Shown here piece after piece: positions 12,070 through 34,828 of a stretch of DNA of 34,828 bases. The notes below the pieces were generated by a model. That model searched no databases. It saw only the letters and a list, made by a program, of their open reading frames with translations, and had not been told where the DNA came from. The DNA lies in the NCBI GenBank assembly GCA_046537745.1, contig JBKHKF010000001.1, positions 1 through 34,828 of the forward strand, in the 5' to 3' direction. Both the position numbers and the translations under genes were made by a program. The stretch's first letter is position 1, and each line of letters begins with the position of its first letter. This DNA is from Anaerolineales bacterium. Its GTDB lineage: Bacteria > Chloroflexota > Anaerolineae > Anaerolineales > E44-bin32.

Positions 12070-12092
12070 ACGCTATGCTCCTCGATCGGCCA

Positions 12093-13178
12093 TCATGGGA
12101 GGGCTGCTTGATACAGCCGCTCGAACTCATGTTGGTACAGGCCGAAAAGTTCCTCGCTGTCAATCAGCAGCAGATTCTCATCATTTCGCTCTTCGGCGCT
12201 TCGAGTGAAGTTGTAAGATCCGGTGATGACAAGCCTGCCGTCAATCAGGATCACCTTATGATGCATCGTGTTAGGATTGGTGTCCAGTCGCATGGACAAG
12301 CCGGCTTCCCGCAAGCGGTTCACGTCCGAACCAAGATCACCGACTCGCTTGGCCTCGAAAACCCCCCGAACCCGGACTCCCCGCCGCTCCGCCGCCAGCA
12401 AAGCCTCGGCAATCGGGTCTGATGTGAATACAAAGGCAAGCACATCGATGGAGCGCTCGGCGCGATCGAGGCTGCGAAGGATCCTGGCGAGCACGCCATC
12501 CTCCGGCGCAAAGGCCGTTTCCACCCCCGCCTCGCCTATCACCAAAAAGGGGTACGGAGTATCGGCCAGCGATAGCTCACCAAAGCGATCAGCCTCGAAC
12601 ATCTCCGCAAACTCAGTGGAGAAATTGGCCGCCATATCGGGGGAGTCGATCACCACCACGTTATTGTCGTTCCGGTACACACCATTCAGGGTCCAGTTCA
12701 TCGAGCCGGTCCACACCCACCGACCGTCGATGACGATGAATTTATGGTGCATCAAGGGCGGCCGGTCATCATAGTTGACGGGAATTCCGGCTTCCACAAG
12801 GTCGATGACCTCCGACCGATGGGCCTGGTCCGCCTCCATCACCACGCGCACCTGTACACCCCGGCGATGCGCCTCAATGAGTGCGTCGCGCACAGTCCAC
12901 AAGTTCAAATCATACAGCGCTGCCTCTACTCGTGTCTCAGCCAAATCGATGGCGGCTACCAGCTCCTCATCAGCTCCGCCCTGGAGCCTGGCTGCCGCCT
13001 GCGCGGAAGGTGGTCCGAAGAACGCGCTGATCGAGGAAGCCCCTTCAATTTCTCCACTCGTCGGTTCCGGCAGCGCCTCGTTTACTGGCCTCTGGCTCTG
13101 CCAGAACAGCGCCGCTGCAGCCAGCAGCACCGCCAGGCCAATCGCAGTGCGGAAAAATCCTTCACCCTCTTTCTTCAT
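12093..13178 (-). CDS. Membrane-anchored/exported phospholipase D superfamily protein with two HKD motifs (Nuc-like)
   Basis: N-terminal anchor or signal FFRTAIGLAVLLAAAALFW. HKD motifs HHKFIVIDGRWVWTGSMNWTLNG..NDNN and HHKVILIDGRLVITGSYNFTRSAEERNDEN. Confidence 0.85.
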   Translation of the reverse strand: MKKEGEGFFRTAIGLAVLLAAAALFWQSQRPVNEALPEPTSGEIEGASSISAFFGPPSAQAAARLQGGADEELVAAIDLAETRVEAALYDLNLWTVRDALIEAHRRGVQVRVVMEADQAHRSEVIDLVEAGIPVNYDDRPPLMHHKFIVIDGRWVWTGSMNWTLNGVYRNDNNVVVIDSPDMAANFSTEFAEMFEADRFGELSLADTPYPFLVIGEAGVETAFAPEDGVLARILRSLDRAERSIDVLAFVFTSDPIAEALLAAERRGVRVRGVFEAKRVGDLGSDVNRLREAGLSMRLDTNPNTMHHKVILIDGRLVITGSYNFTRSAEERNDENLLLIDSEELFGLYQHEFERLYQAALP

Positions 13179-13229
13179 ATCGGGTCAGCCGAAGAAACGA
13201 CCGGAGATCAAAGGACCCCCCTCATAACC

Positions 13230-14045
13230 TTACGGATCGAGCCAGTCGGGCTCTGGCACCTTCTGCGCCAGCTGATCCATCCGCCTGATGGGTTCATAAT
13301 CCTCGTCCGCCACAGCGGCCATGCGTACGAAGCCAGCTAAAGCCAGAATATCACGGCCCCGAGTGCTCTGGCCCATGGCCAACAACGCCGACTTCAACTT
13401 TTGGAACTGATCTGGATCCACATCACCAACGCAAACCCAAGGCGGTGCCGGGCTTGGGCCCAGGGTATCAATCACGCGAACCTGTCTCATCAGGTTCGGA
13501 TTTGAACGGGCAGCTAACGCAAGCACCGTGCTGTCAATAGCCGCAGCGTCAATCTTCTCCTCGAGCAGCAGCGACAACGCAGATTCATGGGAACCGGCCA
13601 CCAGTACCTGCTCGAAAAAGCTCCAATCCAACCCTTCCTGCGCCAGCCGCCAACGAGTGACATTGTAGCCGGAGTGGGAACCGGGCTCATTGATGGCCCA
13701 ACGGGCGCCTGCCAGGTCGAACCAACTTTCGAACTCCGAATCATGTCGCACAACGACATCGGAGAAGTAAATCGGTCGATTCCGGTAGCGATCCGATGCC
13801 ATCACAGGCGCTGCTACTGGCCAGACCGCTTTTGTCAGGTCATCCGCTTTCCTTACATAGGGCAGGCCACACAGCCAAAGCAATTGGATTTCCCCACGGT
13901 CGAATGCCAATTCCCTCTCCTGCCAGCTGATATCCCTGACAAACTCAACCCGCCAATCCGTGGCCGCCGCCAGCCATTCAGCCAGGCCGGCGACCATAGG
14001 ATCCATATTTGGCGCCATGCAAGATGAAATTCGCAATGGCCTCAT
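13230..14045 (-). CDS. PhnD/SsuA-like type-2 substrate-binding-fold protein lacking a signal peptide
   Basis: Features of the phosphonate-binding family: GEIQLLWLCGLPYV, WAINEPGSHSGY, KIDAAAIDSTVL. Start placed at MRPLRISSCMAPN (ATG 14045). The tracked upstream extension is Arg-rich and looks non-coding. Confidence 0.65.
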   Translation of the reverse strand: MRPLRISSCMAPNMDPMVAGLAEWLAAATDWRVEFVRDISWQERELAFDRGEIQLLWLCGLPYVRKADDLTKAVWPVAAPVMASDRYRNRPIYFSDVVVRHDSEFESWFDLAGARWAINEPGSHSGYNVTRWRLAQEGLDWSFFEQVLVAGSHESALSLLLEEKIDAAAIDSTVLALAARSNPNLMRQVRVIDTLGPSPAPPWVCVGDVDPDQFQKLKSALLAMGQSTRGRDILALAGFVRMAAVADEDYEPIRRMDQLAQKVPEPDWLDP

Positions 14046-14159
14046 TCTCCTTATCCCAACTCCAACCGGCGATCTCAGCCGGCGATAAATCCACAATCTG
14101 TAGCCCGTGGCTAAAGCGCGTCGGAATTCCGCAGCGCGCTTAAGCACCAAGTTTAAGGC

Positions 14160-14879
14160 CTAGAGGTTCTTGTCCCGCCGCGCCGCCAGCACCGGGATCG
14201 CCTCAATCTTCTCCTCTGGAAGCAAATCCCACAGAATCCCGGCCGGCCCCGGATCCCTTCGGGCACACGCGATCACTTGTTCCGGGCTGATAATCCAGTC
14301 CAGCGTGATGTCGTGGTTTTGATGCGGCAGCTCCTCCTCCACGATCTGCACCTCGTGTACAGTGGTGATAATCGGCGTTTCCCCATCCACAAGCCCCGCC
14401 TCGCGAGCCAGGCCAAACTCCAAATCCGAGTAGCCACCCCCCTTGCCAACCCTATGGCCCGCCCGATCGACCGCCACAGCCCCTGTCAGGATCAGATCAA
14501 TTTCCGGCATCTCTTCCAACCGGACCGGCCGTCCGTGCTGATCGGCGCCCTTGATGGTGGCTGCACGATCCAATTCATCCGGGGGGATTCTGGCAGGGTC
14601 CAACTCAATAAAGCACGCCATCTTTCGCAGCCTCGGCACGGCCATGTAAACTCGCTTGCCCGCGCGCAGTGCCAGCCGACGGGCGGGGATCTGCGGAGAA
14701 TCTGGATTCGCCTTTAGTGTCTTCGCTTTGGCCCAAACGTCAAGCTCATCCAGTCGATCCGCCGCGGCCTCCGCCCCGACAAAGTTCGGGATTCGCCCCT
14801 GCGCGCCCGGGAATCGGTCCACACCTTGCTGCTGCATCTCTTCCCAGATTTCCTGCCGGATGGCGACCTTCGAACTCAA
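14160..14879 (-). CDS. 5-formyltetrahydrofolate cyclo-ligase family protein
   Basis: IRQEIWEEM at the N-terminus, RIPNFVGAEAAA, and GKGGGYSDLE, which fits the 5-FCL family GxGGGYYD-type motif. Confidence 0.75.
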   Translation of the reverse strand: MSSKVAIRQEIWEEMQQQGVDRFPGAQGRIPNFVGAEAAADRLDELDVWAKAKTLKANPDSPQIPARRLALRAGKRVYMAVPRLRKMACFIELDPARIPPDELDRAATIKGADQHGRPVRLEEMPEIDLILTGAVAVDRAGHRVGKGGGYSDLEFGLAREAGLVDGETPIITTVHEVQIVEEELPHQNHDITLDWIISPEQVIACARRDPGPAGILWDLLPEEKIEAIPVLAARRDKNL

Positions 14880-21550: not shown

Positions 21551-22252
21551 TCAGGCTGACAACACTTTCATTTTGAGCTGCTCGACGCGATCCCCCAGAT
21601 CCTCGAGCCTGAACCGGTGCCAAAGCAGCGTCGCATAAACGAAGGTGAAGGTGATTAAGCTGAAGAAGAAAGTCTGAAGCATCTTGGGCGTCATATCGAA
21701 GGTCCCCTCCGCTGTTGGATCGCCCGACCCGATCACCACCGGATGGATGGTTCGAAGAAGGCGGACCGACAGGAAGGTGATGGGAACACTGATAAAACCA
21801 ACGATCCCGTATACCGAGCCAAAGGTGGCCCGTCGTTCCGGGTCCTCAATGCCCTGGCGCAGCAGCAGGTAAGCCAGGTAGATCAACTCCATCACCGTGG
21901 CCGTCACCAGCCTCGGGTCCCAGGTCCACCAGGTGTTCCAGATGGGTCGAGCCCAGATGGAACCCGTCGCGATATTGATAAAGGCGAAGATCACGCCAAT
22001 TTCCACCGAGGCTACCGCCACCTGATCCCAGCGCCGTTCCCGACGCACCAGATAGATTACTCCGGCGATCGCCGTGACCAGGAATGCAAGGGCGCCCACC
22101 CAGCCTGCGGCCACGTGAAAATAGAAGACCCGCTGCACTTCGCCCATGACCGCTTCTCGCGGCGCATAAAAGAAAACCATGGCGAGCGCAGCCGCAAAGA
22201 TAAGTGAAGTGACGCCCGTCAATACCTTCAAGCCCGTTGGTGTCTCCTTCAT
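21551..22252 (-). CDS. ccmC: Haem exporter / haem-handling protein CcmC
   Basis: Trp-rich WWD-type motif NTWWTWDPRLV, multiple TM helices and conserved His context (FYFHVAAGW). Start placed at MKETPTG (ATG 22252), which has a GGAGGA RBS. The tracked start at 22306 would overlap ccmB by 23 nt. Confidence 0.88.
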   Translation of the reverse strand: MKETPTGLKVLTGVTSLIFAAALAMVFFYAPREAVMGEVQRVFYFHVAAGWVGALAFLVTAIAGVIYLVRRERRWDQVAVASVEIGVIFAFINIATGSIWARPIWNTWWTWDPRLVTATVMELIYLAYLLLRQGIEDPERRATFGSVYGIVGFISVPITFLSVRLLRTIHPVVIGSGDPTAEGTFDMTPKMLQTFFFSLITFTFVYATLLWHRFRLEDLGDRVEQLKMKVLSA

Positions 22253-22283
22253 CCCTTCCTCCTCATGCCAGCCATCACTGGCG

Positions 22284-23015
22284 TCATTCTTGAACGACAT
22301 ACTCATACACCATCATGGCAACGGCGATAAAGATAACGTCGTAAGCGAGCATAATGTTAACCCAGGGTCGAATTTCAGCCATGGGAACCTGTTGAAGATA
22401 GCCGTTGCTGGTTTTGACCGCGGCGATTAGAACCGGAAGGAACACCGGAAACAGCAGTATGGGAAGCAGAACATCCCGGGTTCGCGTCTGCACTGCCATG
22501 GTGGACAACAGCGTCCCGACCGCGGAGTACCCGACCGTCCCCAAACCCACCGCCAAGAAAACCCCCGGTTTCAACAGATTCACGTTGTAAAGCAACCCAA
22601 AAAGCGGCATCACAATCAGCGCCACCAGCCAGATGAACAACAAATTGGCCAGCGCTTTGCCAAAGTATATTGCGCTGCGGTCCACCGGCGTCAACAGAAG
22701 CCCCTGCATGCAATCCCGCTCCTGCTCCTGACCCATGGATCGGTTCAGGCCCAGAGTGCCCGCAAATGTCAGTGTGACCCAGAGCACACCGGAGGTGATT
22801 TCCTGGCGCAGCTGGCTTTGCAGCTCCAGCGCAAAGTTGAAGACCAGAATCACCAGAAAGGAGAACACCAGCATCGCGCTCAGCAGCTCCCGGCTACGCA
22901 GCTCGGAGGCGAGCTCCTTGCGCACCAGCGCGCTAAGCGCCCTGAGATAAGAGGAGACGCCTGATTTCGGCGACGGCTGGGCCACCTTCGGCCCTTTTTT
23001 CACCCGATCAGCCAC
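22284..23015 (-). CDS. ccmB: Haem exporter permease CcmB
   Basis: Six-TM ABC-2-like permease between ccmA and ccmC. GTG start overlaps the ccmA stop (GTGGCTGA). Confidence 0.85.
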   Translation of the reverse strand: MADRVKKGPKVAQPSPKSGVSSYLRALSALVRKELASELRSRELLSAMLVFSFLVILVFNFALELQSQLRQEITSGVLWVTLTFAGTLGLNRSMGQEQERDCMQGLLLTPVDRSAIYFGKALANLLFIWLVALIVMPLFGLLYNVNLLKPGVFLAVGLGTVGYSAVGTLLSTMAVQTRTRDVLLPILLFPVFLPVLIAAVKTSNGYLQQVPMAEIRPWVNIMLAYDVIFIAVAMMVYEYVVQE

Positions 23016-23706
23016 GTGTGGCCTCCCGGTAGGCTTCAGCCAGCCCCTCGGTCGTCACGGTGCTGGTGCTGATGCTTGTCGCTACTCTGCCCCTCGATAA
23101 AATGTCCACCCGGTCGGCCAGCCGGTGAGCCCGGGCTAAATCATGCGATGTCATCACCACCGTCCGGCCCAGACTGGCAACCTGGGCCAGCAGATCATCC
23201 AGTATCAATGCGGCATCCTGATCAAGGCCGGTATGCGGCTCGTCCAGCAGCAGCAGCTCGGGTTGGTGCAAAATGGCGCGGGCGATAGCCAGCCGCTGCT
23301 GCATACCGCGGGAGAAGGCGCGCAACAGCTCCCGGCGTACCTTCCACAACCCGACCAGCTTCAGCGTCTCCTCCACTCGCTGGTCCACCTCAGCCAGGTC
23401 GTACATACGGCCGAAAAATTCGAGATTCTCCTGAGCAGTGAGGTCGCCATACAGCATCGGCTGATGGGCGACCACGCCAATGAGCCGGCGCACCTGAGAT
23501 TCGCCACCCGGGATCGGCACCGATGCGATCTGGATGATGCCCGCGGTGGGGCGCGCCAGCGAGGTCAAGATCCGAAGGAAGGTCGTCTTGCCCGCACCAT
23601 TGGGGCCAACAAGCGCGACAAATTCGCCGGCCGCCACGGAGAAATCCAGGCCGCGAAGCACAGGCTTCAGCCCGTACCTTTTAACCAGGCCGCGGACTTC
23701 AATCAT
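23008..23706 (-). CDS. ccmA: Haem exporter ATP-binding protein CcmA
   Basis: Walker A GPNGAGKTT, signature FSRGMQQR (the degenerate CcmA-type), Walker B LLLLDEPHTGLD. Positioned directly upstream of ccmB and ccmC. Confidence 0.88.
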   Translation of the reverse strand: MIEVRGLVKRYGLKPVLRGLDFSVAAGEFVALVGPNGAGKTTFLRILTSLARPTAGIIQIASVPIPGGESQVRRLIGVVAHQPMLYGDLTAQENLEFFGRMYDLAEVDQRVEETLKLVGLWKVRRELLRAFSRGMQQRLAIARAILHQPELLLLDEPHTGLDQDAALILDDLLAQVASLGRTVVMTSHDLARAHRLADRVDILSRGRVATSISTSTVTTEGLAEAYREATRG

Positions 23707-25522
23707 CTTGTCTCTGCATCAGGTCGATCAGCTGTTCCTTCAGCTCCTGGCGGCGCCGGCGGTAGGCGGCTTCCTCCACCTTGCCCGCTTCAAAGGCTTC
23801 GTCCAGGTCGGCGATGGCCTTCACAAGCCACTCTTGCCGCTCGCTCTCCGCCCGATCTTTGGTTGCGATGGATTCGCCTTCAGAGGTCGCCGCGGAAATC
23901 CAAGGACGATACCACCACAGGGTGGCTGCCAGTGCCAGCAGAAAGACCAGGCCCCCGATCACCCACTCCAAATCCAGGGAATCCGGCGCCAAGCGGGACC
24001 AGAAGGAGGGGCCCTGCAGTGTAATAACCAGCTGCTGGCCTGCCTCCCTGGACGGAAGGTCATACTGATGGAAATTCTCGCCGCCCGCCTGTCTTTGCCC
24101 CCGATCAACGACCTGCTCGGCCTCGACCTGGGGGCCACCGTCGGCAATCAATACCGTCACCGCGCTGACCGGCATGGTCAACGGACGACTCAACTCGGTC
24201 GTCCCTTCGAAGGGGACCTGGTAGCTGAAGACAATTTGAGCACCCTGGCCGCTGGGTCGCAGCGGCTCGGCCAGCTGAAAACCTCCTTCTACCGGGTTAT
24301 AACGTTCCGCCAGTAGGCTGTCCTCAAAGCGGAGATCCGTCGCTTCCTCAGGCAGCAGAATACGGACGCCATCCTCCTCCCCGGGCACCACGGTCCGCTG
24401 GCCGCTGTTGCTGATGACCCAGAGCTCAACGATCCTCAATCCCGTTTCAGACGGCTGATCAATCAGAATGTGCACTCGGCCCGCCTGCACCGCGCTGACA
24501 TCGGAGGTGGTTTCGTAGACCGTGATTGGCAGCTGAAGTTCTCCGTCGGATTCTTCAGCAAAATGAAGGACCTCTGAGCTGTAACGGACGCCCTGATATT
24601 GCGCGCTGATTACAAATAATCTGCCCGGGGCTCGTTCCAGATTGCGGAATGCGTAATCCCCATCCGCTCCGACCTCCTGCGTTTCAGAAAGCACCTCTTC
24701 CTGACCATCGAAGCCATGGATCGTGACCTCAAAACCGGCCTCCATGGGCTCGCCGCTGGTGCCATTTTGAGCCTGTCCCACGATGACGCCTGAGCCTTCT
24801 TCCTGTTCGACCGCCTCCGTTTCATCAATGGCGCCTTCACGGTCAAACGCGAGGCTCTGGACATAGGCTGTCACAGCCCAGATCTCCTCTTCAGCCAACT
24901 CTTCGCTGAAACCGGGCATCGTACCAACACCCACGCCGATCACAGCTGCCAGCTCACTCCGGGAGGATTGTGCATAGCTTTCCGAATCAATGATCGATGG
25001 TCCCTGCTGACCGCCTTCACCGCTCCGGCCGTGACATTCAGCGCAGTACTGCTGATAAAGGTTGCCACCCTCCGACAAGGCCGCTTCTTGGTGGCTCAGA
25101 CTCAAGGCGTAGGCGACAACATCCCAGCGCTCCTGGTCCGTCAAGCTGCTAAAGGGCGGCATGAAACGATCCATGCGTCCAACGGTCACTATCTGATACC
25201 ACTCGGCGGGAGCAGCCGACCGTGCGATTTCCGGATCGGCTAGCGCAGCCGGGGCCACCGACAGATCCGCCGCTTGTTCGCCGTCACCGAGCCCCTCCGG
25301 ACCGTGACAGGCGTCGCAACGCTGCTGATAGATGGCTTCTCCAGCGGCTGCCTCGGGCGAGGATGTGGGAGGTTCCACAGCGACCGGCGTGGTGGGTGTG
25401 GCCACCTGGGTTGCCAGGCTGACGGGGCTGCTGGAAGCGCCAGGCGGGGGCGTAATGTCGCCAGCTAAATTGCAGCCGGCTAACAGGGATCCAAGGAGAA
25501 CCAGCCATCCAATCCGCTTCAT
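23699..25522 (-). CDS. Dihaem c-type cytochrome lipoprotein with a beta-rich ectodomain, one C-terminal TM helix and a CcmI-motif cytoplasmic tail
   Basis: Start MKRIGWLVLLGSLLAGC (lipobox). CDACH and CAECH haem motifs with downstream MPPF/MPGF. About 300 aa of beta-rich sequence. TM helix WVIGGLVFLLALAATLWWY. Tail AIADLDEAFEAGKVEEAAYRRRRQEL. ATGA overlap with the upstream gene and an 8-nt overlap with ccmA. Confidence 0.8.
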   Translation of the reverse strand: MKRIGWLVLLGSLLAGCNLAGDITPPPGASSSPVSLATQVATPTTPVAVEPPTSSPEAAAGEAIYQQRCDACHGPEGLGDGEQAADLSVAPAALADPEIARSAAPAEWYQIVTVGRMDRFMPPFSSLTDQERWDVVAYALSLSHQEAALSEGGNLYQQYCAECHGRSGEGGQQGPSIIDSESYAQSSRSELAAVIGVGVGTMPGFSEELAEEEIWAVTAYVQSLAFDREGAIDETEAVEQEEGSGVIVGQAQNGTSGEPMEAGFEVTIHGFDGQEEVLSETQEVGADGDYAFRNLERAPGRLFVISAQYQGVRYSSEVLHFAEESDGELQLPITVYETTSDVSAVQAGRVHILIDQPSETGLRIVELWVISNSGQRTVVPGEEDGVRILLPEEATDLRFEDSLLAERYNPVEGGFQLAEPLRPSGQGAQIVFSYQVPFEGTTELSRPLTMPVSAVTVLIADGGPQVEAEQVVDRGQRQAGGENFHQYDLPSREAGQQLVITLQGPSFWSRLAPDSLDLEWVIGGLVFLLALAATLWWYRPWISAATSEGESIATKDRAESERQEWLVKAIADLDEAFEAGKVEEAAYRRRRQELKEQLIDLMQRQDD

Positions 25523-25992
25523 GGCAGGCTTGCCTCGGCCAGCGGCTCGCCGCACTGGGTGCAGAATTTATCTTCGGTCAGGGCTTCAGCCCCACAGGCT
25601 GGACAATATTTGGTGCTTTGATCAGGCGACGAACGCTGACGCAATTTCAGCACTTCGGCTTCGATGGCTGATTCGAGATCCTCCGCCGAACCCTCCGATG
25701 GCGCCTGGTGGCCCGCACCGAGCTCGTCAATCCTGCGGAGCAGCTCAGCCCCCTCCTTCACCAACTCCGCTCGCCGTCGCTGATAATCGTGCGCGTCGAT
25801 CTTGTTCATAGCGCGATCCATATCCAGCTCTGCCAGCGCATCAAGTACTCGATCGCGCTGAGCCAGCAGGGAGGAGAATTCAACATCCTCCTCTGTAACC
25901 ACCATGCCGCGCTGCTTCAGCAATGGGCGGGCGACGTACGCCGCCACCAGGGCCAGCAGGCCCAGGATAAATAGAATAGCTCCAATTTCCAT
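25519..25992 (-). CDS. Single-pass membrane protein with a CcmI-N-terminal-like motif and a C-terminal zinc ribbon
   Basis: N-terminal TM helix IGAILFILGLLALVAAYVA. Then ALAELDMDRAMNKIDAHDYQRRRAEL. Then CPAC-x10-CTQC. Confidence 0.7.
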   Translation of the reverse strand: MEIGAILFILGLLALVAAYVARPLLKQRGMVVTEEDVEFSSLLAQRDRVLDALAELDMDRAMNKIDAHDYQRRRAELVKEGAELLRRIDELGAGHQAPSEGSAEDLESAIEAEVLKLRQRSSPDQSTKYCPACGAEALTEDKFCTQCGEPLAEASLP

Positions 25993-26075
25993 GATGACCT
26001 TTTCTCAAGCTTGGCAAACTAGAAGGGCATGCAATTGAAGAGGCGAGCTATCGCCCGCAGCGGGGGCCAGTCCGA

Positions 26076-26657
26076 TCAGCCCGACATGGCGGCATCGATC
26101 GCCGCCTGGATCTCCGCGAGCGAACTGTAGGGACCCTTCCTCACCGAATCAATACGGCCCGATGGATCAATGATATAGGTTTCCGGCACGCCGCGCATCC
26201 GGAATTTCTGAGAAATCCGGGTCCCCAGATCAGGGCCGCTCGGATATGAAATATCAAACTTGTTCATGTAAGCCATAGCTTCTGGCTCAGTATCCACATA
26301 ATTCACCCCCAGGAATACGACGCCCTGGTCTTGATACTGGCGGTAAGCCTGCTCAAGCTCCGCCGCCTCCTCCTCGCATGGAGCGCACCAGGAGGCCCAG
26401 AAATTCACCACGACTACCTGGCCGCGCAAAGCCTCCATTGAGATCTGCTCCCCTTCAAAGGTGGTAAGGGTGAAATCCGGCACTCGACTTCCCACACCGA
26501 CCGGTCCCTGTTGGGTTCTTATCAGGCCCAGGCCCAGCACCGCCAGCAGGATCACAACGGCCCCAAGCGCCAGGATTGCCCCCAAGGGCAACCCAAATAA
26601 TCGAAACCCCCTATTCGATGGCTCTTTATTCCTGTCTTCGACTATACCGTCATTCAT
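26076..26657 (-). CDS. ccmG: Thiol:disulfide oxidoreductase CcmG/ResA/TlpA family
   Basis: TM anchor LFGLPLGAILALGAVVILLAVLGLGL. Thioredoxin motif NFWASWCAPCEEE. GVPETYIIDPSG. Start at MNDGIVE (ATG 26657) overlaps the ccmH stop. Confidence 0.85.
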   Translation of the reverse strand: MNDGIVEDRNKEPSNRGFRLFGLPLGAILALGAVVILLAVLGLGLIRTQQGPVGVGSRVPDFTLTTFEGEQISMEALRGQVVVVNFWASWCAPCEEEAAELEQAYRQYQDQGVVFLGVNYVDTEPEAMAYMNKFDISYPSGPDLGTRISQKFRMRGVPETYIIDPSGRIDSVRKGPYSSLAEIQAAIDAAMSG

Positions 26658-27201
26658 CCTCAGCCTCGTCTTGAAGCGCCGGTTTATCTCCGGGTTCCAG
26701 GCCTTGTCGGGCCGCCAACTCTTGTTCCAGCTGGGCGATGTAGGGATCCTCCGTGGATTCGGGCACATCCTCCACTTCAAAGTCATCCCCGGATCGCTGC
26801 CAGCTGCGCACAGCTCGGAAGAGCACGCCGGCTCCCGCCAACAATGCCACCGGTGGCAGGATATAAACCAACCAGTTCAACCCACGGGCAGGCGGAGTCG
26901 CCAGCACACGGTCGCCGTACTGCTCAACGAAATAATTCTTGATTTCCTGCTCGGTCCAACCTTCCGCCAGCTTCTCCCGGATCAAGCTGCGCCACTGCAC
27001 ACAAGCCTCAGTCCCACACACATCCAGCGGGATATTCTCGCAGACCGGGCAATACAATTGCTCGGCGATATCGTTGACTTCGTTATCAGTAGGCCCACCA
27101 TCCTGAGCAGAAGCAGTTCCAAGCGGCACAGCCAGGATCAACAGCGCCATTGAAATCAACGCTAATTGAATGAGCCTCGCAGAGGTCCATTTTTTACTCA
27201 T
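26650..27201 (-). CDS. ccmH: Cytochrome c maturation protein CcmH/CycL/NrfF family
   Basis: Signal peptide, CPVC redox motif (LYCPVCENIPLDVC), FVEQYGDRVL, a TM helix WLVYILPPVALLAGAGVLF and an acidic C-terminal tail. Confidence 0.85.
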   Translation of the reverse strand: MSKKWTSARLIQLALISMALLILAVPLGTASAQDGGPTDNEVNDIAEQLYCPVCENIPLDVCGTEACVQWRSLIREKLAEGWTEQEIKNYFVEQYGDRVLATPPARGLNWLVYILPPVALLAGAGVLFRAVRSWQRSGDDFEVEDVPESTEDPYIAQLEQELAARQGLEPGDKPALQDEAEDE

Positions 27202-29255
27202 GCCTTAGCCCAGGCCTTTCTGTCCGCCTTTCGCCCCTGCATCACGCGCATAGGGTCAGGTTCCGGCCAAGCAGCCACCGCGGTCCCCAGGATGAAAATC
27301 AGACCACCAAACCACACCAGATTGACAAGCGGGTTCTGGTAGACCTTGAAGGTCGCACCTCCCTGTTCAATCGGCTGCCATCCGACCAGCAAAACGTAAA
27401 AATCGTCCTCGATCGAGGAACGGACGCCCGGAATGGTCATAGGCTGCTGGGTGCTGAAGTAAAAGTCCCGGCGAGGATAAAGTTCGCCTTGATATTCGCC
27501 ATCTTCGTACAAAGACACCACAGCTCTGGTGACCAGACGGTCATCCTCCGTGACAAACTCAGAAAGCGAATCGTAGGTCATAACGTATGAGCCAAGGGTA
27601 AGCTGCTCCCCCTGGCTAAGCGTCGCCTGCGTTTCGGATTGGAAGACCTCAATCCCGATGATCCCCATCGCCATGACGACTACGCCTAAATGAACGACAT
27701 AACCACCATAACGCTGTCGGTTCCTGGCCGCCAGGCGCCACAGCGCCTGGAGTACATTTTCCCCATGGCGGTGATGGCGAGCCAAGGCGCCCCGCCAAAA
27801 TTCATAAATGGTCACCAGGCTCGCAAGCGTGATCACCCAATAGCCCAGGATGGCGCCGGGCATGCGCATGCCGGCCAGCACCAAGGCAATTGGAGTCACC
27901 AGTGATAGCGCAGCCGGTTTCCAGAGTGATCGGCCCAGGTTTTTCCAGCTGGTGCGCCCATAGACGGACAGCGGCGCAACTCCCATGAGCAGCAGCAATC
28001 CAATCCAGAGCGGTGAGGTGGCGCGCTCGTAAAAAGGTGGACCTACGGTCACCTTCTGGCCCGCGATGAGTTCGGAGATAAGCGGAAACATTACGCCCCA
28101 GAAGCAAATGATCAGGATTCCAATGAAAAGCAGGTTGTTGAGCAGGAACAAGGCCTCCCGGGAGAACATAGAATGCAGTTCATTCTCACCGCCAAAGCCG
28201 TTCCACCGGCTGATCAAGAGAGCGGTCGAGGCCAGGAAGGTCACACTGATGAAGCCAAAGAACATCGGACCAATGGCCGACTGGGCAAAAGAATGCACGG
28301 AAGAGAGCACGCCGGATCGGGTCAGGAAGGTGCCGAAGATCACCAGCGCGTAGGTCAGGATCACCAGCACCATGTTCCAGCGCTTCAGCATCCCCCGCTT
28401 CTCCTGCACCATCACCGAGTGCAGCAGGGCCGTGCCTGTGAGCCACGGCATAAAGGCCGCAATCTCCACCGGATCCCAACCCCAATAGCCGCCCCATCCG
28501 AGCACGTCATAAGCCCAGCGGCCGCCAAGGATGAGCCCTAACGAAAGGAACAACCAGGCGACAAGCGTCCAGCGACGGGTCAATCGGATCCAGCGGTCAT
28601 CGGTGCGTCTGGTGATCAGCGCGGCGATGGCGAAGGCATAAGGGATCACGAAGGCGACGAAGCCGAGGTACAGCATCGGCGGGTGGATGATCATTCCTGG
28701 ATGGCGCAGCAGCGGGTTCAGCCCCTGTCCATCCGAAGGGATCAGCGGAGTCGCGCCAACCGGAGCGAACATGGCCGTGATCTGCTGGCCAGCCGCGCTG
28801 CGCCACAGGCGGGCAAAGGGATTTTCGAAAAAGACCACCAGGGAAAGGAAGAAGGCCAGCGTAACCATGGTCACCATGATCACCCAGGGCAGAAACTCCC
28901 GATCCCGATCCCAGCGGCGCAGGCTGGCGGCCGTGGCGAAACCGGCCATCAACCAGGACCAGAAGACCAACGACCCTTCCTGGCCGCCCCACAGGGCAGT
29001 AACCTTCAAATAGGTGGGCATCGCCTCGCTGGTGACGGAGGCGACATAGGAGATTTGATATTGGCCAGTGACCAGCAGAATAATAATGGCCAGACCGGAA
29101 AGGCTGAGCAGTGGAAAGGTGAGCACCATCGCCCGCCGGGCGCTCTCCACCAGCCAGGGCTTGTTCTGAACTCCCCCCAAGGCGGCGGCGGTTGCGCCAT
29201 ATATTGAGATGCCAAACGTGATGACTACCGTCAGAAAACCAATGTCAGCGATCAA
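27198..29255 (-). CDS. ccmF: Cytochrome c haem lyase subunit CcmF
   Basis: 685 aa with many TM helices. WWD motif GWGGYWGWDPVE and conserved His contexts. TTG start with AGGAG 8 nt upstream. Overlaps the ccmH start by 4 nt. Confidence 0.92.
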   Translation of the reverse strand: MIADIGFLTVVITFGISIYGATAAALGGVQNKPWLVESARRAMVLTFPLLSLSGLAIIILLVTGQYQISYVASVTSEAMPTYLKVTALWGGQEGSLVFWSWLMAGFATAASLRRWDRDREFLPWVIMVTMVTLAFFLSLVVFFENPFARLWRSAAGQQITAMFAPVGATPLIPSDGQGLNPLLRHPGMIIHPPMLYLGFVAFVIPYAFAIAALITRRTDDRWIRLTRRWTLVAWLFLSLGLILGGRWAYDVLGWGGYWGWDPVEIAAFMPWLTGTALLHSVMVQEKRGMLKRWNMVLVILTYALVIFGTFLTRSGVLSSVHSFAQSAIGPMFFGFISVTFLASTALLISRWNGFGGENELHSMFSREALFLLNNLLFIGILIICFWGVMFPLISELIAGQKVTVGPPFYERATSPLWIGLLLLMGVAPLSVYGRTSWKNLGRSLWKPAALSLVTPIALVLAGMRMPGAILGYWVITLASLVTIYEFWRGALARHHRHGENVLQALWRLAARNRQRYGGYVVHLGVVVMAMGIIGIEVFQSETQATLSQGEQLTLGSYVMTYDSLSEFVTEDDRLVTRAVVSLYEDGEYQGELYPRRDFYFSTQQPMTIPGVRSSIEDDFYVLLVGWQPIEQGGATFKVYQNPLVNLVWFGGLIFILGTAVAAWPEPDPMRVMQGRKADRKAWAKA

Positions 29256-29322
29256 GGCTATCGCTCCTGAGGCTAGGGATATCCATTCACCGTCGAGGTG
29301 AATTGAGGCGGCCGATTGTCAA

Positions 29323-29835
29323 TCAGCCGCTTTGAACTGGGACTTCCTCTTCATACCGGGTTGGGCATTTCAAGAGAAGCTCCTCTGCGTGAAAGACACC
29401 GTCCTGCATGCGGCCGGTGACAATCGCCTGGGCTTCGTGCTGAAGCAAATCCGGCATCGGCCCCTCATACAGAACCGGAATCCGGGATGCTTCGGGGTTG
29501 TTGACCGCCTGATGAAGCACTTCTGCCAGGCCGCCGGCCGCCTCGATCTCCGTCTGATCCGCCGGCACATTGACAATGGTAAAGTGAAGCGTCAGCGTCT
29601 CGGCTTCGTATTCAATGGAATCCCCAAGAACCGCACCGCTCACTCTGAGATCGCGATCGGCCACCTCCGCTTCCCTCTCCACCAGTTCATCAATCGTCAA
29701 ATAATATTGAGCAGATGCCTGTGTGGACGAGGCAATCAGATAAATCACTGCCGCCGCTATTAGAAGTCCGCCAATCAGGAATTTCCCACGCCCGGTGGAA
29801 CGGGCAGTTAACACTTCGAGCTTTTCCTTCTCCAT
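29323..29835 (-). CDS. ccmE: Haem chaperone CcmE, Cys-type variant (CxxxY in place of HxxxY)
   Basis: TM anchor FLIGGLLIAAAVIYLI and OB-fold-like core (LRVSGAV..., PVLYEGPMPDLLQHEAQAIVTG). The haem-attachment region reads AEELLLKCPTRYEEE, where canonical CcmE has LAKHDENY. Confidence 0.85.
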   Translation of the reverse strand: MEKEKLEVLTARSTGRGKFLIGGLLIAAAVIYLIASSTQASAQYYLTIDELVEREAEVADRDLRVSGAVLGDSIEYEAETLTLHFTIVNVPADQTEIEAAGGLAEVLHQAVNNPEASRIPVLYEGPMPDLLQHEAQAIVTGRMQDGVFHAEELLLKCPTRYEEEVPVQSG

Positions 29836-30060: not shown

Positions 30061-31284
30061 ATGAATTCACCCACTCGGAAGATGAGCGGACGGTCCTGTC
30101 TGAAGAGAGGTAGTTTCTTGATTGGATTACAACCGACAAACAAAGGCTTTGATCCTTCGAAGGCCATCCTGCTTCTCGGCGCTTTGTTACTGACAGTCCT
30201 CTTCGTCTCGCCTCTGATCTGGAGTTCGGCTGAGGCCAGTGAAGGCCAGCAACCACCGGCCCAGGATGGTCCTGATAACGAAACTTGTTTCGCTTGCCAC
30301 GCCTCGCCGGATTTGCAGACCGAACTCTCTTCGGGAGAGATTCTGGACCTGACGGTTTTCCCAGGGGCATTTGACAACTCCGTACACGGCATGGCCGATC
30401 TGCAATGCATCCAGTGTCACACGGAGATTGAAGGTTATCCCCACCCGCCCATTCAGGCGGACACCCGCCGGGAATACACCATCAATCAATATCGAGTTTG
30501 TGCCGATTGTCATCAGGAAAAGTACGACGAAACTCTGGACAGCGTCCATTCACGAGCGCTGGCAGGTGGAAACTTCAATGCGGCTGTTTGCACCGACTGC
30601 CATGGGGCGCACGATGTGCGACCCCCGGGCGAACCGCGTTCGCAGATCGCGCAAACCTGCCGCCAGTGCCACACCACCATTTACGATCAATATCGGGACA
30701 GCGTGCATGGTGAGGCTCTGATCGGCCAGGGCAACCCGGATGTTCCGGTTTGCACGGATTGTCACGGGGTCCACAGCATCGAAGGACCATCGGCCGATCA
30801 CGAGTTCCGACTGTTCTCACCTCAGCTTTGCGCCGAGTGCCACGCCGATGAAGAGCTGATGGCTAAATACGACATTTCCACGAACGTGTTCGATACCTAC
30901 GTGGCGGATTTCCATGGCACCACCGTCACCCTGTTCCAGCAGATCGCCCCAGGCCAAGAGACCAACAAGGCGTTATGCATCGACTGCCATGGTGTGCACG
31001 ACATCATTGGCGTCGATGACCCGGACAGCCCGATCATCAAGGAAAATTTGCTCAATACCTGCCAGAAGTGCCACCCGGATGCCACCACCAACTTCCCTTC
31101 GGCCTGGCTGGGGCATTACGAGCCAAGCCCGCAGAACGCACCGATCGTTTACTACGTTGATCTTTTCTACAAGATTTTCATCCCGGCTGTGTTAGGAGGC
31201 ATGGCGATCTTCGTCATAGGCGATGCAGGCCACCGGATCCTCCAGCGCCGCTCCAAATCGGAGGAGGAAAAGTCCGATGAGTGA
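30061..31284 (+). CDS. Nine-haem c-type cytochrome with a signal/anchor sequence and a C-terminal TM helix
   Basis: Nine CXXCH motifs: CFACH, CIQCH, CADCH, CTDCH, CRQCH, CTDCH, CAECH, CIDCH, CQKCH. Hydrophobic N-terminal segment AILLLGALLLTVLFVSPLIWSSAEA. C-terminal helix IFIPAVLGGMAIFVIG. The start is uncertain: ATG 30061, ATG 30082, or TTG 30118 with an AGAGAGG RBS. Confidence 0.85.
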   Translation: MNSPTRKMSGRSCLKRGSFLIGLQPTNKGFDPSKAILLLGALLLTVLFVSPLIWSSAEASEGQQPPAQDGPDNETCFACHASPDLQTELSSGEILDLTVFPGAFDNSVHGMADLQCIQCHTEIEGYPHPPIQADTRREYTINQYRVCADCHQEKYDETLDSVHSRALAGGNFNAAVCTDCHGAHDVRPPGEPRSQIAQTCRQCHTTIYDQYRDSVHGEALIGQGNPDVPVCTDCHGVHSIEGPSADHEFRLFSPQLCAECHADEELMAKYDISTNVFDTYVADFHGTTVTLFQQIAPGQETNKALCIDCHGVHDIIGVDDPDSPIIKENLLNTCQKCHPDATTNFPSAWLGHYEPSPQNAPIVYYVDLFYKIFIPAVLGGMAIFVIGDAGHRILQRRSKSEEEKSDE

Positions 31285-32443
31285 CGAACGACGCTATCAA
31301 CGTTTCTCCGTCGCCCAGCGGATAGAACATTGGGTGGCCATGGGCAGCTTCACCATTCTTGCGCTGACGGGGTTGGTCCAGAAGTTCGCGGAAGCCCAGA
31401 TCTCTGTAACGATCATCGATCTGCTGGGCGGCATTGAAGCGACCCGAATTATTCACCGCGGGGCGGCCATCATCTTGATGCTTGAGGTGGTCTACCACCT
31501 GGGCTCGGTCGGCTACAAATTCCTGGTGCAGCGCTCATCACTGCCGATGCTGCCCAGCCTAGAAGATATCCAAAACGCCTGGCAAACGCTTAAATATTAC
31601 TTCGGCGGCGCAAAGAACAAACCGCAGCAAGGCCGTTTCACCTTTGAGGAGAAAGCGGAGTACTGGGCTTTTGTCTGGGGAACCATCATCATGGCCATCA
31701 CGGGCTTTATGCTGTGGAATCCCATCGCCACTACCCGGTTTCTCCCTGGAGAGTTCATACCCGCGGCCAAGGCTGCCCATGGGAATGAAGCGCTGTTGGC
31801 AGTGCTGGCCATTATCCTTTGGCACTTCTACCACGTACACATCCGAACCTTCAATCGGAGCATGTTCACCGGCAAGATGTCGGAGCATGAAATGCTGGAT
31901 GAACACCCCAAGGAACTGGCCGATATCAAGGCCGGTCGCGCGCGCCGGGATCTCGACGAATCCGCCGTCCAGCGACGCCGCATGATATTCCTGCCAGTGT
32001 ACGGGGTGATTGCGCTTGCACTGGTGTTTGGCATCTACCAGTTCGCCACCTTCGAGGAAACAGCCATCGAAACAGTGCCAACGCAAGAGGGCGAAGTGGC
32101 TGTGTACGTACCCTTCACTCCCACCCCGCCACCGACGGAAGGGCCCACGGAGGCGCCCACGGAGGGTGCAGTTCCCACTACATGGGAGCAAGGTATCGGG
32201 GATTTATTCCAACAGCGATGCGCGGGCTGCCATACCGGCGACAGCGCCTCGGGTGGATTGGATGTCACTACCTATCAAAGCACGCTGGAGGGTGGAACTT
32301 CAGGCCCAGGAGTCGTCCCGGGTGACCTGGACGCCAGCCTGGCCATTCAACGACAAATCTCCGGTGGTCATCCGGGCGAATTCACGGACCTGGAAATCGG
32401 ATGGGTTATTGACTGGGTTGAGGCTGGCGCGCCCGAAAACTAA
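31277..32443 (+). CDS. FdnI/HydC-type dihaem cytochrome b (4 TM) fused through a fifth TM helix and a Pro/Thr linker to a monohaem cytochrome c domain (PSCyt1-like)
   Basis: YQRFSVAQRIEHW, IIHRGAAIILMLEVVYHL, EKAEYWAFVWGTIIMAITGFMLW and AAHGNEALLAVLAIILWHFYHVH give the His-bearing helices. A fifth helix IFLPVYGVIALALVFGIYQF follows, then linker TPTPPPTEGPTEAPTEG, then QQRCAGCHTGDSASGGLDVTTY...GGTSGPGVVPGDLDASL...WVEAGAPE. The start overlaps the upstream stop (ATGAGTGA). Confidence 0.85.
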   Translation: MSDERRYQRFSVAQRIEHWVAMGSFTILALTGLVQKFAEAQISVTIIDLLGGIEATRIIHRGAAIILMLEVVYHLGSVGYKFLVQRSSLPMLPSLEDIQNAWQTLKYYFGGAKNKPQQGRFTFEEKAEYWAFVWGTIIMAITGFMLWNPIATTRFLPGEFIPAAKAAHGNEALLAVLAIILWHFYHVHIRTFNRSMFTGKMSEHEMLDEHPKELADIKAGRARRDLDESAVQRRRMIFLPVYGVIALALVFGIYQFATFEETAIETVPTQEGEVAVYVPFTPTPPPTEGPTEAPTEGAVPTTWEQGIGDLFQQRCAGCHTGDSASGGLDVTTYQSTLEGGTSGPGVVPGDLDASLAIQRQISGGHPGEFTDLEIGWVIDWVEAGAPEN

Positions 32444-32854: not shown

Positions 32855-34321
32855 ATGAGTGAAATCACGAAGGTCGCATCCTGGATTCGGTCCAACCTGC
32901 GTGTGAAATTTGCGCTCGGCCTGGGATTGCCGCTCTTCTTCATCCTGACATCCCTGGCGGTCGGCAATTACCTGCGCGAAAGGAGGTTGGCCGAACAGCA
33001 GCTGGAGGACTCGGCCCAGCGGATCGGCGACTTTACCTTGGCCAGCCTGCGGCATGGAATGCTGCAAAATGAACCGGAACTCCTTCAGGAAGTGATGGAG
33101 GACCTGGTTGACTTACAAGATATCGAGCGCGTCAAGTTGGTGGACATGGGTGGCGAGACAGCCCTGGCAACCCAAAGCCAGCCGGACCTGGAGCCTGCCA
33201 GCGACATCGACTACACATGTACGCTTTGCCACCAGCATCCAGCAGCCGCCCGCCCGCGCTCGATGCGAATTGGGGAAAGTGATGGATTGATCCGCATCGC
33301 CTCCCCCATCCCAAACGACCCGGATTGCCATATCTGCCATGGACCTGAACCCTCCCATCTGGGCATGCTGCTGATCGATGTATCCTTCGCCGATCTGGAC
33401 GCGCGATTACACCAGGACCTGGGCAGCAATCTGGCGCTCTCCGGTGGAGGCGCTCTGCTGGCCATAACAGTAGCCTACCTCCTGAGCCATTTACTGGTGG
33501 TCCGGCGGGTGGAATCTTTCAGCGAACCGGTGGCCAAAATCACAAGCGGCGACCTGACAGCCCATGTCCCAGGCGAGGATCAATCCACCGACGAGCTCGG
33601 CGCGCTCGCCCGGGCATTCAACCAGATGGCCGATCATCTCAATCGCGAGAAAAGGGCTGCCGACGCCCGGAGTCAGGTTCGACAGCGGGCTATCATCGAG
33701 GAGCGCAACCGACTTGCCCGGGAGCTGCACGACGGCCTGTCCCAACTGCTGGGCTATTTAAACGCCAAGGCGATTGCAGCGCGCCTGAAAGTCCAATCCG
33801 GAGATGGGGAGGGGGCGGCCGATCTGCTGCGGCAGCTGGAGGCAGCCTCTAAGGAACTCTTTACCGATGTTCGCGCCGCTATACTGGCACTCAAATCAAG
33901 TGGAGGCGCCGGCTTGGTCTTTCCGGAAAATCTGCGGACCTACATTCAGCGCTTCGAGGAATTGAGCGGGCTTGAAGTGGATGTCGAATTCTCACTTCAG
34001 CCCCTGGCCCACCAGGTATCGGCCGAGACGGAATTACAACTCCTGCGAATCACGCAAGAAGCTCTGGCGAACATTTACAAGCACGCGGAAGTGGACCACG
34101 CCGTGGTATCGCTTACGGTGGTTGATCATACGCTGGTGCTTCTTATACAAGATGAAGGCATTGGTTTTGAACCCGGAGCATCCGGGACCAAAGGAGCCGA
34201 TGGGTATGGAATGTCCACCATGGGAGAAAGGGCTTCCGCCATCGGCGCTGATCTAAAGATAGAATCATCCCCAGGCGGCGGCACTCGAATCTTGGTCCGC
34301 ACACCGTTGGAGGAGAGGTAA
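32855..34321 (+). CDS. Sensor histidine kinase (HisKA_3/NarX-like) with two CXXCH motifs in the extracytoplasmic sensor loop
   Basis: TM1 FALGLGLPLFFILTSLAVGNYL. The loop contains CTLCH and CHICH. TM2 ALSGGGALLAITVAYLLSHLLVV. HAMP segment ...ELGALARAFNQMADHL. H-box ERNRLARELHDGLSQ. HATPase segments ITQEALANIYKHA, DEGIGF, GYGMSTMGERA. Confidence 0.88.
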   Translation: MSEITKVASWIRSNLRVKFALGLGLPLFFILTSLAVGNYLRERRLAEQQLEDSAQRIGDFTLASLRHGMLQNEPELLQEVMEDLVDLQDIERVKLVDMGGETALATQSQPDLEPASDIDYTCTLCHQHPAAARPRSMRIGESDGLIRIASPIPNDPDCHICHGPEPSHLGMLLIDVSFADLDARLHQDLGSNLALSGGGALLAITVAYLLSHLLVVRRVESFSEPVAKITSGDLTAHVPGEDQSTDELGALARAFNQMADHLNREKRAADARSQVRQRAIIEERNRLARELHDGLSQLLGYLNAKAIAARLKVQSGDGEGAADLLRQLEAASKELFTDVRAAILALKSSGGAGLVFPENLRTYIQRFEELSGLEVDVEFSLQPLAHQVSAETELQLLRITQEALANIYKHAEVDHAVVSLTVVDHTLVLLIQDEGIGFEPGASGTKGADGYGMSTMGERASAIGADLKIESSPGGGTRILVRTPLEER

Positions 34322-34329
34322 TCTTCGTG

Positions 34330-34828
34330 ATGGATGTTCTTGTTGCAGATGACCATTCACTGTTCCGGGACGGCATCGTCAGCCTGCTGGAAGCTGCCGG
34401 CCATCAAGTTGTCGGCCAGGTCGGCAATGGAGCCGAAGCCATTGAAGCCGCTGGGGAACTCGAGCCCGACCTAATCCTGATGGATCTCAACATGCCAGAG
34501 GTCAGCGGTATCGAAGCGCTGCGCGCCATCAAACGTGACCAACCCAGGATCCGGATCGTGATGTTGACCGTTTCCGAGGAAGATAGCGATCTACTGTCGG
34601 CAGCCCAAGCAGGCGCAGACGGCTACCTTCTCAAGAATCTTGATGGCGAGGAATTCATCGAGATGATGGATGGCCTGAAACGTGGCGAAGCCGCCATGAC
34701 CCGGAAGACGGCGGCCCGCTTGCTCCGGAAGATGTCTAGCCCAGAATCCGAATCCGATGATGGCCGGGACGAGTTAACAGAGCGCGAGCTCGAGCTGCTG
34801 CAGCTTGTTGCCCGGGGCTTATCCAACC
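34330..34828 (+). CDS. NarL/FixJ-family response regulator (3' end lies outside the window)
   Basis: Receiver domain: VLVADDHSLFRDG, LILMDLNMPEVSG, IVMLTVS, GADGYLLK. The LuxR-type HTH begins at LTERELELLQLVARGLSN. GGAGGAGAGG RBS upstream. The GTG at 34327 is an alternative start. Confidence 0.88.
   Translation, partial: MDVLVADDHSLFRDGIVSLLEAAGHQVVGQVGNGAEAIEAAGELEPDLILMDLNMPEVSGIEALRAIKRDQPRIRIVMLTVSEEDSDLLSAAQAGADGYLLKNLDGEEFIEMMDGLKRGEAAMTRKTAARLLRKMSSPESESDDGRDELTERELELLQLVARGLSN

Follow-up and report, generated by a model that had tools for sequence, protein, structure and literature searches.

Two overlapping genes of an Anaerolineales metagenome-assembled genome (MAG), read here in a window that is a complete contig of 34,828 bp, probably encode a two-subunit, haem-only menaquinol:cytochrome c oxidoreductase of the CbcL type; we put the probability of this reading at roughly 0.7. 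Gene 1 (30061..31284, + strand) specifies a nine-haem cytochrome c that is exported and anchored in the membrane at its C-terminus, and gene 2 (31277..32443, + strand) a dihaem cytochrome b of the FdnI fold, followed by a fifth helix, a Pro/Thr linker and a PSCyt1 monohaem domain. What carries the reading is the architecture of the pair, its homology, its fold, its conserved ligands, concordant topology signals and an obligatory gene pairing. An initial annotation of this DNA had already proposed a stand-alone CbcL-type module; its architecture stands, joined now by homology and by conserved pairing, and the electron-conduit role that it assigned to the module is kept as a presumed function.

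Relationship to CbcL and to naturally fused proteins

CbcL of Geobacter sulfurreducens, as Zacharoff and colleagues reportedly described it in 2016, fuses a nine-haem periplasmic domain to a HydC/FdnI-type b-cytochrome and passes electrons from the quinol pool to low-potential extracellular acceptors. Our comparator was a CbcL-like protein of Desulfuromonas thiophila (locus L008), reached via the fragment P0256, which had been found by searching with poorly machine-read CbcL fragments from the supplement of PMC9129911; only short fragments resembling the b domain of CbcL matched. At this locus the lack of a single T splits one gene into a 434-aa nine-haem open reading frame (ORF) and the 179-aa P0256. 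The repaired protein has 614 aa, nine CXXCH motifs and six helices, and it matches both the machine-read CbcL fragments (PMC9129911) and the published His/helix pattern of CbcL (10.1101/2021.04.15.440034). The frameshift lies at about 5950-5960 of L008, on a contig of 2.9 Mb, with the T missing in gatatttcc; it is either an assembly error or the sign of a pseudogene.

When the products of genes 1 and 2 are concatenated, they align colinearly with residues 28-597 of this protein (BLASTP, 28% identity over 624 columns, 217 bits), and the nine haem motifs, the anchor helix, the four b helices and the extra helix are all in register, which agrees with the earlier description of the parts of CbcL as present here on two polypeptides. 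Each product also aligns by itself: gene 1 at 129 bits, with nine of nine CXXCH and the anchor in register, and gene 2 with residues 337-597 at 91 bits, fifth helix included. Gene 1 is equivalent to the N-terminal two fifths of fused CbcL, and the two genes part in the cytoplasmic loop that joins the anchor helix to the first b helix. One transmembrane helix in gene 1 and five in gene 2 make six in total, as in CbcL.

Proteins that join the two parts naturally are also found. An exhaustive HMMER search with gene 2 against 1.84 billion cluster representatives returned 5,820 relatives at E<=0.001 (346 at E<=1e-30), and among the best 150 are fusions whose b domain starts at residues 270-390, behind a multihaem domain. 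The fused protein P0396 and a fuller member of its cluster, P0511, are 54-56% identical to the joined pair over about 610-640 columns; P0511 (689 aa, Anaerolineae) has nine CXXCH and a Lys-rich connecting loop, and is without PSCyt1. Another fusion, P0429, is 45% identical to the joined pair and has a different tetrahaem tail, and five further fused proteins are 32-38% identical.

Given the colinear alignment with the CbcL-like protein and these naturally fused relatives, the split pair is by homology a member of the CbcL/MtrH/MtoC family. The identity of 54-56% to fused relatives means that the split would be a fission or fusion inside the family and not the mark of a separate one; judged from these alignments, split and fused forms interconvert within a single family. 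The split form of the initial annotation is thus right for the two ORFs seen here and needs the correction that the same clade holds naturally fused forms. Members of the family mostly have six helices and carry 3-23 haem motifs at 28.6-100% identity (Zhong & Shi 2018, PMC6295460); that 2018 survey, which covered quinol oxidases of the inner membrane in extracellular electron transfer, counted 138 of them in 15 phyla, none in Chloroflexi. CbcL itself, a protein with b and c haems only, is required when the acceptor lies below -0.1 V (10.1101/2021.04.15.440034; 10.1101/2022.08.31.506072).

The nine-haem subunit

Gene 1 occupies the ORF 29968/30061-31284, and its residues are counted here from the ATG at 30061. 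NCBI lists it as MFP3852679.1, a 388-aa 'cytochrome c3 family protein', which implies a TTG start at 30118; the mature protein is identical whichever of the two starts is used. The signal peptide region (30061..30237, + strand), seen in sequence and hydropathy, has its hydrophobic core at residues 35-53 and is presumably cleaved after residue 59, between AEA and SEG. The nine-haem domain (30286..31074, + strand) begins with the first Cys of CFACH and ends with the His of CQKCH, with CXXCH motifs at residues 76, 116, 147, 177, 200, 231, 257, 306 and 334. Hydropathy places the C-terminal transmembrane anchor (31162..31218, + strand) at residues 368-386, before the basic cytoplasmic tail HRILQRRSK; an AlphaFold2 helix at residues 361-406 covers it, and it aligns with the first transmembrane helix of the D. 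thiophila CbcL-like protein. The nine haem motifs, the export sequence and the anchor are therefore as first annotated.

Among 22 homologues of gene 1, all nine CXXCH are invariant and so are exactly nine additional His. Because the further invariant His equal the haem motifs in number, all nine haems are probably bis-His, the ligation that has been reported for the periplasmic domain of CbcL (PMC9129911). The anchor contains a further His (H391), and this was considered as a b-haem ligand of the kind proposed for CbcA; it aligns with a His of the CbcL-like protein but is unconserved in the family, and we rejected it.

The NCBIfam comparison does not place gene 1 in an enzyme-associated cytochrome family, which the initial annotation had named as the outcome that would count against it. 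Its best NCBIfam match, DmsE/MtrA (TIGR03508), scores 54 bits where the cut-off is 192.2, and with NrfB, NrfH and NapC-NirT it reaches at most 28.5 bits against cut-offs of 134-310. The top PDB sequence match, 6r2q_A, is weak, comes via the paired CXXCH repeats and carries the table label 'cystathionine beta-synthase'; we take 6R2Q to be the MtrCAB complex and its chain A to be MtrA.

The cytochrome b subunit and its topology

The ATG of gene 2 overlaps the TGA of gene 1 by 8 nt, within ATGAGTGA (bases 31277-31284), as initially noted, and the Shine-Dalgarno sequence GGAGGAGGA lies directly 5' of this start. NCBI lists the product as MFP3852680.1, 'cytochrome b/b6 domain-containing protein'. 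Pfam finds PF01292 (Ni_hydr_CYTB) at residues 9-199 (1e-13), and the four-helix cytochrome b core (31310..31846, + strand) spans residues 12-190. Across 27 aligned homologues at 50-85% identity, its histidines H18, H60, H74, H168 and H183 do not vary.

The best PDB sequence match of gene 2 is E. coli FdnI (1kqf_C, 3.2e-8), and FdnI is also the sole significant Foldseek match (E 2.2e-6, target-normalised template-modelling score 0.79) of an AlphaFold2 model built on 27 homologues, which has a predicted local distance difference test (pLDDT) of 80.8. In the alignment with FdnI, H18, H60 and H168 fall on its haem ligands H18, H57 and H155. The annotation of gene 2 as a four-helix, FdnI-like b-cytochrome is thereby confirmed, and all four of its haem-ligating His, H183 being the fourth, are present.

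Helices were taken from the AlphaFold2 model together with the FdnI alignment, simple hydropathy having picked up two of the five; they lie at residues 12-36, 53-84, 123-147, 160-190 and 228-258. The last of these, the fifth transmembrane helix (31958..32050, + strand), corresponds to the sixth helix of fused CbcL and brings the chain back to the outer face. The loop before it (190-235) contains 11 Lys+Arg, and the C-terminal 134 residues contain 2 Lys+Arg against 21 Asp+Glu. This charge distribution and the modelled helices agree with haem c domains that face outward, the orientation expected in the initial annotation.

A tethered haem domain shared with other probable quinol modules

Past the fifth helix, gene 2 continues through a disordered Pro/Thr-rich linker (32060..32167, + strand; residues 262-297, pLDDT below 50) that includes TPTPPPTEGPTEAPTEG, and ends in the PSCyt1 monohaem domain (32174..32440, + strand; residues 300-388), where Pfam finds PF07635 at residues 315-359 (2.9e-9). 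The single CXXCH of the protein is the CAGCH at residue 315 (C315-A-G-C318-H319), and an invariant H365 stands in the motif GxHPG. The succession of helix, linker and CAGCH domain is thus as first described. The tenth haem that was added to the module on this account is present here as one PSCyt1, but it is not a fixed feature, since the copy number varies from 0 to about 6 across the clade.

Throughout the gene 2 family the TPTPxPT pattern is kept in the linkers, and homologue alignment shows the His of GxHPG to be invariant and no Met to be conserved in PSCyt1. Homologues of greater length (490-620 aa, some reaching 830-914 aa) contain between two and about six PSCyt1 domains in tandem, with a Pro/Thr/Ala-rich linker before every one; P0361 (830 aa), P0364 (912 aa) and P0367 (914 aa) have five or six, with linkers that are Pro/Thr/Ala-rich or acidic. 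A class I cytochrome c annotation of these extra C-terminal domains was rejected, as the alignment shows tandem PSCyt1 repeats.

PSCyt1 also ends two other kinds of protein in the same clusters, a NapC/NrfH-like heptahaem protein and the cytochrome c subunit of a Rieske/cytochrome b (bc) complex. At locus L018 these are a 564-aa NrfH/NapC-like heptahaem protein (9180-10874) and a 703-aa fusion of subunit IV with five class I cytochrome c domains (12061-14172), and the terminal PSCyt1 of both is 34-38% identical to that of gene 2. The presumed distal-ligand position reads QPHF in the NapC-like neighbour, MMPP in the bc-complex subunit and GxHPG in the CbcL-like subunits. From these motifs we infer bis-His ligation and a lower potential for PSCyt1 where it belongs to a CbcL-like or NapC-like module, and His/Met ligation where it belongs to the bc complex. 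Three different quinol modules appear to have this tethered output haem in common, with the distal ligand tuning it.

One could instead take the pair for a general menaquinol:cytochrome c oxidoreductase, an alternative to complex III that feeds terminal oxidases or N-oxide reductases via PSCyt1 and has nothing to do with extracellular electron transfer. The presence of PSCyt1 on the NapC/NrfH-like and Rieske/cytochrome b proteins of the same clusters does give it the look of a shared output plug, bacteria without a confined periplasm commonly tether their cytochromes c, and a sensor kinase in the window is closest to NarX/NarQ-type kinases, though far below the cut-off. However, a canonical bc complex stands alongside in many loci and would make such a role redundant, the distal ligand is His here and Met on the bc-complex copy, which points to a different, lower working potential, and no oxidase or reductase gene adjoins the pair in the loci inspected. 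We regard this alternative as improbable.

For the tether itself, the envelope of the host may matter. Literature cited in PMC7399161 holds that Anaerolineales probably have no Gram-negative envelope, and this would be a reason for a tethered rather than a soluble output cytochrome. A further idea, which we offer tentatively and think unlikely, is that tandem Pro/Thr-tethered bis-His PSCyt1 domains form a 'beads-on-a-string' tether, carrying electrons from membrane quinol oxidases outward through the wall of outer-membrane-less Chloroflexota, with the distal His or Met setting the acceptor pool for each module. If this were true, the PSCyt1 tether would be a trans-envelope solution unlike the porin-cytochrome complexes or the cytochrome filaments of Geobacter.

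Distribution and gene neighbourhood

A distribution scan that took one genome per GTDB species found at least 588 stretches encoding a relative of gene 2; the module is neither rare nor isolated and belongs to a very large Anaerolineae family. The neighbourhood counts that follow cover the best 80 of these stretches, 76 of which include upstream DNA. All 80 are from Chloroflexota MAGs, mostly labelled Anaerolineales or Anaerolineae, the other labels being Aggregatilineales, Ardenticatenales, Bellilinea and Thermanaerothrix. At every one of the 76 loci with upstream DNA, the next gene upstream is a homologue of gene 1 in the same orientation, and it has exactly nine CXXCH in 71 of them, most of the others apparently being cut by contig ends. 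The gene 2 homologues contain one CXXCH in 77 cases and two in three. At one locus of an Ardenticatenales MAG (L076, 102-2192) the upstream cytochrome has 15 CXXCH in 696 aa.

It is also conceivable that the pair serves as the membrane anchor and electron-transfer module of a distant catalytic enzyme (formate dehydrogenase, hydrogenase, HAO-like or NrfA-like), as FdnI or the anammox electron-transfer modules do. JGI annotates homologues as 'formate dehydrogenase gamma subunit', and the corresponding NCBIfam model (TIGR01583) is the closest to gene 2, yet the score of 63.4 bits is far under the cut-off of 115.85. The upstream partner is a nine-haem cytochrome in 76 of 76 loci, not an iron-sulphur (FeS) or molybdopterin subunit, and the whole pair aligns end to end with CbcL-type fusions that are themselves without such a partner. 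In agreement with the initial annotation, which saw no adjacent catalytic subunit, no molybdopterin, NiFe, NrfA or HAO gene occurs anywhere in the 34.8-kb contig, and none adjoins the pair within 8-10 kb in the 80 related loci inspected; nor is there a molybdopterin or FeS subunit, as partners of the FdnG/FdnH kind would be, in the contig or adjoining the pair in those loci. On this evidence we consider the enzyme-anchor explanation very improbable indeed.

Other cytochrome genes recur around the pair. In roughly half of the loci the next gene downstream encodes a heptahaem protein (about 565 aa) that is NrfH/NapC-like at its N-terminus and ends in PSCyt1; in another recurrent neighbour, of about 700 aa, cytochrome b subunit IV of a Rieske/cytochrome b complex is fused with five class I cytochrome c domains and PSCyt1; and octahaem and decahaem cytochromes recur as well. 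At L001, L005, L007 and about 25 of L009-L088, the DNA downstream of the pair encodes on its opposite strand a conserved triad: an octahaem cytochrome of about 300-330 aa, an FeS protein of the Fer4_11 type and an NrfD-type membrane protein. This triad is a second, unrelated quinone-interacting module. On one Anaerolineales chromosome (CP070639.1; L022, 5408-6724) a collagen-like Gly-X-Y repeat occupies residues 45-84 of the octahaem cytochrome whose gene shortly precedes the pair.

Divergent from the pair in the window is a System I ccm operon (21551..29835, - strand) that comprises ccmC, ccmB, ccmA, a 618-aa dihaem cytochrome c, a zinc-ribbon protein, a TlpA-like thioredoxin, ccmH, ccmF and ccmE; it is supporting machinery outside the module proper. 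Among the related loci, ccmE is found near the pair (within 8 kb) in 28 of 80, ccmF in 23 and ccmH in 18. The 618-aa cytochrome (23699-25555, - strand) combines two class I cytochrome c domains with a weakly CcmI-like stretch at residues 536-614. Homologues of it are encoded at 14 of the 80 loci and also next to ccmEFH at L007; the protein may be a cytochrome-fused maturation chaperone or one more tethered cytochrome.

Downstream of gene 2 the window encodes a HAMP/HisKA_3 sensor kinase (32855..34321, + strand) with two CXXCH (CTLCH and CHICH) in its extracytoplasmic part, and then a NarL/LuxR-type response regulator (34330..34828, + strand) that is cut off by the contig end. HisKA_3 kinases are encoded at 39 of the 80 loci, 10 of them full-length homologues of this dihaem kinase and 29 others, and NarL-type or response-regulator-like ORFs at 40; the dihaem homologues are usually downstream of cytochrome genes. 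The dihaem kinase is likely a redox-sensing regulator of the cluster, an association of moderate strength.

The 116 stop-free segments of at least 100 aa in the window (24,353 residues) contain 14 CXXCH in total, distributed as 9, 1, 2 and 2 in four segments and 0 in the other 112. The four are, by our reading, gene 1, gene 2, the kinase and the 618-aa cytochrome.

Proposed electron path and the direction of flow

We infer haem occupancy, subunit contact, quinone-site position, direction of flow and acceptor from the features above, and the following scheme is conditional in those respects. The product of gene 2 (subunit B) would be an FdnI-fold bundle with two b haems stacked across the membrane, the cytoplasmic-side haem held by H18 and H183 and the outer-side haem by H60 and H168. 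By analogy with FdnI and with the published CbcL model (10.1101/2022.08.31.506072), the quinol site would be at the cytoplasmic-side b haem. The product of gene 1 (subunit A) would be exported, matured by the adjacent Ccm system into a chain of nine bis-His c haems and held beside B by its C-terminal helix, and the fifth helix of B would place the Pro/Thr-tethered bis-His PSCyt1 haem on the outer face. Electrons would then most likely pass from menaquinol to the cytoplasmic b haem, to the outer b haem and on to the nine-haem chain, the tethered haem or both, and from there via other multihaem cytochromes to low-potential extracytoplasmic or extracellular acceptors. Proton pumping would be absent because the quinol protons would be released to the cytoplasm. 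The module is probably reversible, and if run inward it would act as a redox loop like FdnI.

Some points weigh against this reading. First, the comparator is a presumed CbcL orthologue with a repaired frameshift, not CbcL of G. sulfurreducens (GSU0274) itself, and the identity of 28% sits at the bottom of the range published for the family (28.6-100%, PMC6295460). Second, the fourth ligand, H183, is one residue out of register with H169 of FdnI (a spacing of 15 versus 14), the spacing of 15 from H168 to H183 being that of the D. thiophila CbcL-like protein. Third, the AlphaFold2 model of gene 1 is poor (pLDDT 60) and uninformative on haem packing and on the interface of A and B; a Foldseek search with it gave no match, and a model of low quality is expected for an apo multihaem protein. 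Fourth, no further multihaem cytochrome gene that could serve as acceptor is on the contig, which ends 500 bp past the kinase. Finally, function and direction of flow in the Anaerolineae clade are putative, and the family also includes MtoC of Fe(II) oxidisers, so that outward flow is to be taken as presumptive.

The last point leads to the possibility that the same pair runs inward, with electrons from Fe(II), cathodes or a syntrophic partner reducing menaquinone at the cytoplasmic side and energy being conserved as a redox loop, like FdnGHI and as proposed for MtoC. The family holds the MtoC proteins of the Fe(II) oxidisers Dechloromonas and Gallionella, with no sequence feature that parts quinol oxidisers from quinone reducers (PMC6295460); the FdnI fold runs in this direction in its best-known example; and Ardenticatena, a cultured relative, shows anodic and cathodic electron transfer according to work cited in PMC7399161. 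On the other hand, the ten c haems all appear to be bis-His and such haems are usually of low potential, which fits low-potential output better than Fe(II) uptake at neutral pH, and the neighbourhoods inspected give no indication of a lithotrophic donor system. We think inward operation unlikely, though it carries the most weight among the alternatives, and prefer the menaquinol-oxidising reading of the pair.

Other genes of the window

Two further features of the window lie apart from the cytochrome genes. A selenocysteine synthase, SelA (4062-5459, + strand; Pfam 5e-134), indicates that the organism presumably makes selenoproteins. Three adjacent genes (8392-13178, - strand) may form an anti-phage island: a Csa3/CARF-like winged-helix protein (8392-9483, - strand), an 807-aa HerA-like ATPase (9646-12069, - strand) with weak matches to PADLOC mad8 and to HerA, and a two-HKD phospholipase D-type nuclease (12093-13178, - strand; PADLOC DrmC, 2e-24).

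Significance

Anaerolineae are among the most abundant bacteria of anoxic sediments, aquifers, anode biofilms and wastewater sludge. We know of no membrane entry point for extracellular electron transfer that has been named in them so far. Such transfer is suspected because their genomes are rich in multihaem cytochromes (PMC7399161; 10.1101/2021.08.23.457424). The pair is a concrete candidate for moving respiratory electrons out of the cell membrane in this common sediment and wastewater group, and a conserved, easily recognised two-gene marker of a module that would link the menaquinone pool of Anaerolineae with extracytoplasmic cytochromes. The module is useful and testable for how these bacteria join the quinone pool to multihaem cytochromes, and in principle unsurprising.

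The CbcL family and its logic are already known, and both proteins are already annotated generically in NCBI. What is new is that the family has a very large clade in Chloroflexota, that its division into two subunits is conserved there, and that a tethered PSCyt1 of variable copy number is shared with NapC-like and bc modules. Literature searches on CbcL with Anaerolineae or Chloroflexota, on PSCyt1 and on MtoC with CbcL found no description of the split module, of its clade or of its PSCyt1 output domain; our guess is that searches modelled on the fused protein would overlook the split form. The pair indicates that the CbcL design is workable as two subunits, which should ease heterologous expression and structural work, and the otherwise uncharacterised PSCyt1 gains a context as the terminal haem of three different quinol-oxidising modules.

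Comparison with known systems

MtrA and DmsE differ from gene 1, which has nine haems instead of ten, a C-terminal anchor and no porin partner. FdnI, the gamma subunit of E. coli formate dehydrogenase-N (1KQF chain C), shares with gene 2 the four-helix fold and a core whose N- and C-termini are cytoplasmic; unlike FdnI, gene 2 has a multihaem cytochrome c as its partner in place of FdnGH, and it adds the fifth helix and a haem c domain.

The closest parallel in gene layout is CbcBA of Geobacter sulfurreducens (GSU0593-0594; Joshi et al. 2021, 10.1101/2021.04.15.440034), also two genes, of which one encodes a C-terminally anchored multihaem cytochrome c and the next a separate four-helix dihaem PF01292 cytochrome b. 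CbcA, however, has seven haems and an anchor proposed to donate a b-haem ligand, whereas here all four ligands are in gene 2. At L008 in D. thiophila we identified a putative CbcA/CbcB pair from its seven CXXCH, its PF01292 domain and an adjacent sigma-54 regulator. Against these two proteins the Anaerolineales pair scores 44 and 36 bits (BLASTP), matching through repeats only, versus 129 and 91 bits against the CbcL-like protein; by sequence comparison, CbcBA and the Anaerolineales pair are different families.

Compared with CbcL, the Anaerolineales chain is split into two polypeptides, while the c and b domains of CbcL share one; the pair adds a Pro/Thr-tethered PSCyt1 after the last helix; and its host belongs to the Chloroflexota and is probably without an outer membrane. 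The two systems have in common an exported N-terminal nine-haem domain, in both cases apparently bis-His, an anchor helix, a four-helix dihaem b domain of the FdnI/HydC type and a further helix, and both are without an FeS, flavin, Mo or NiFe partner.

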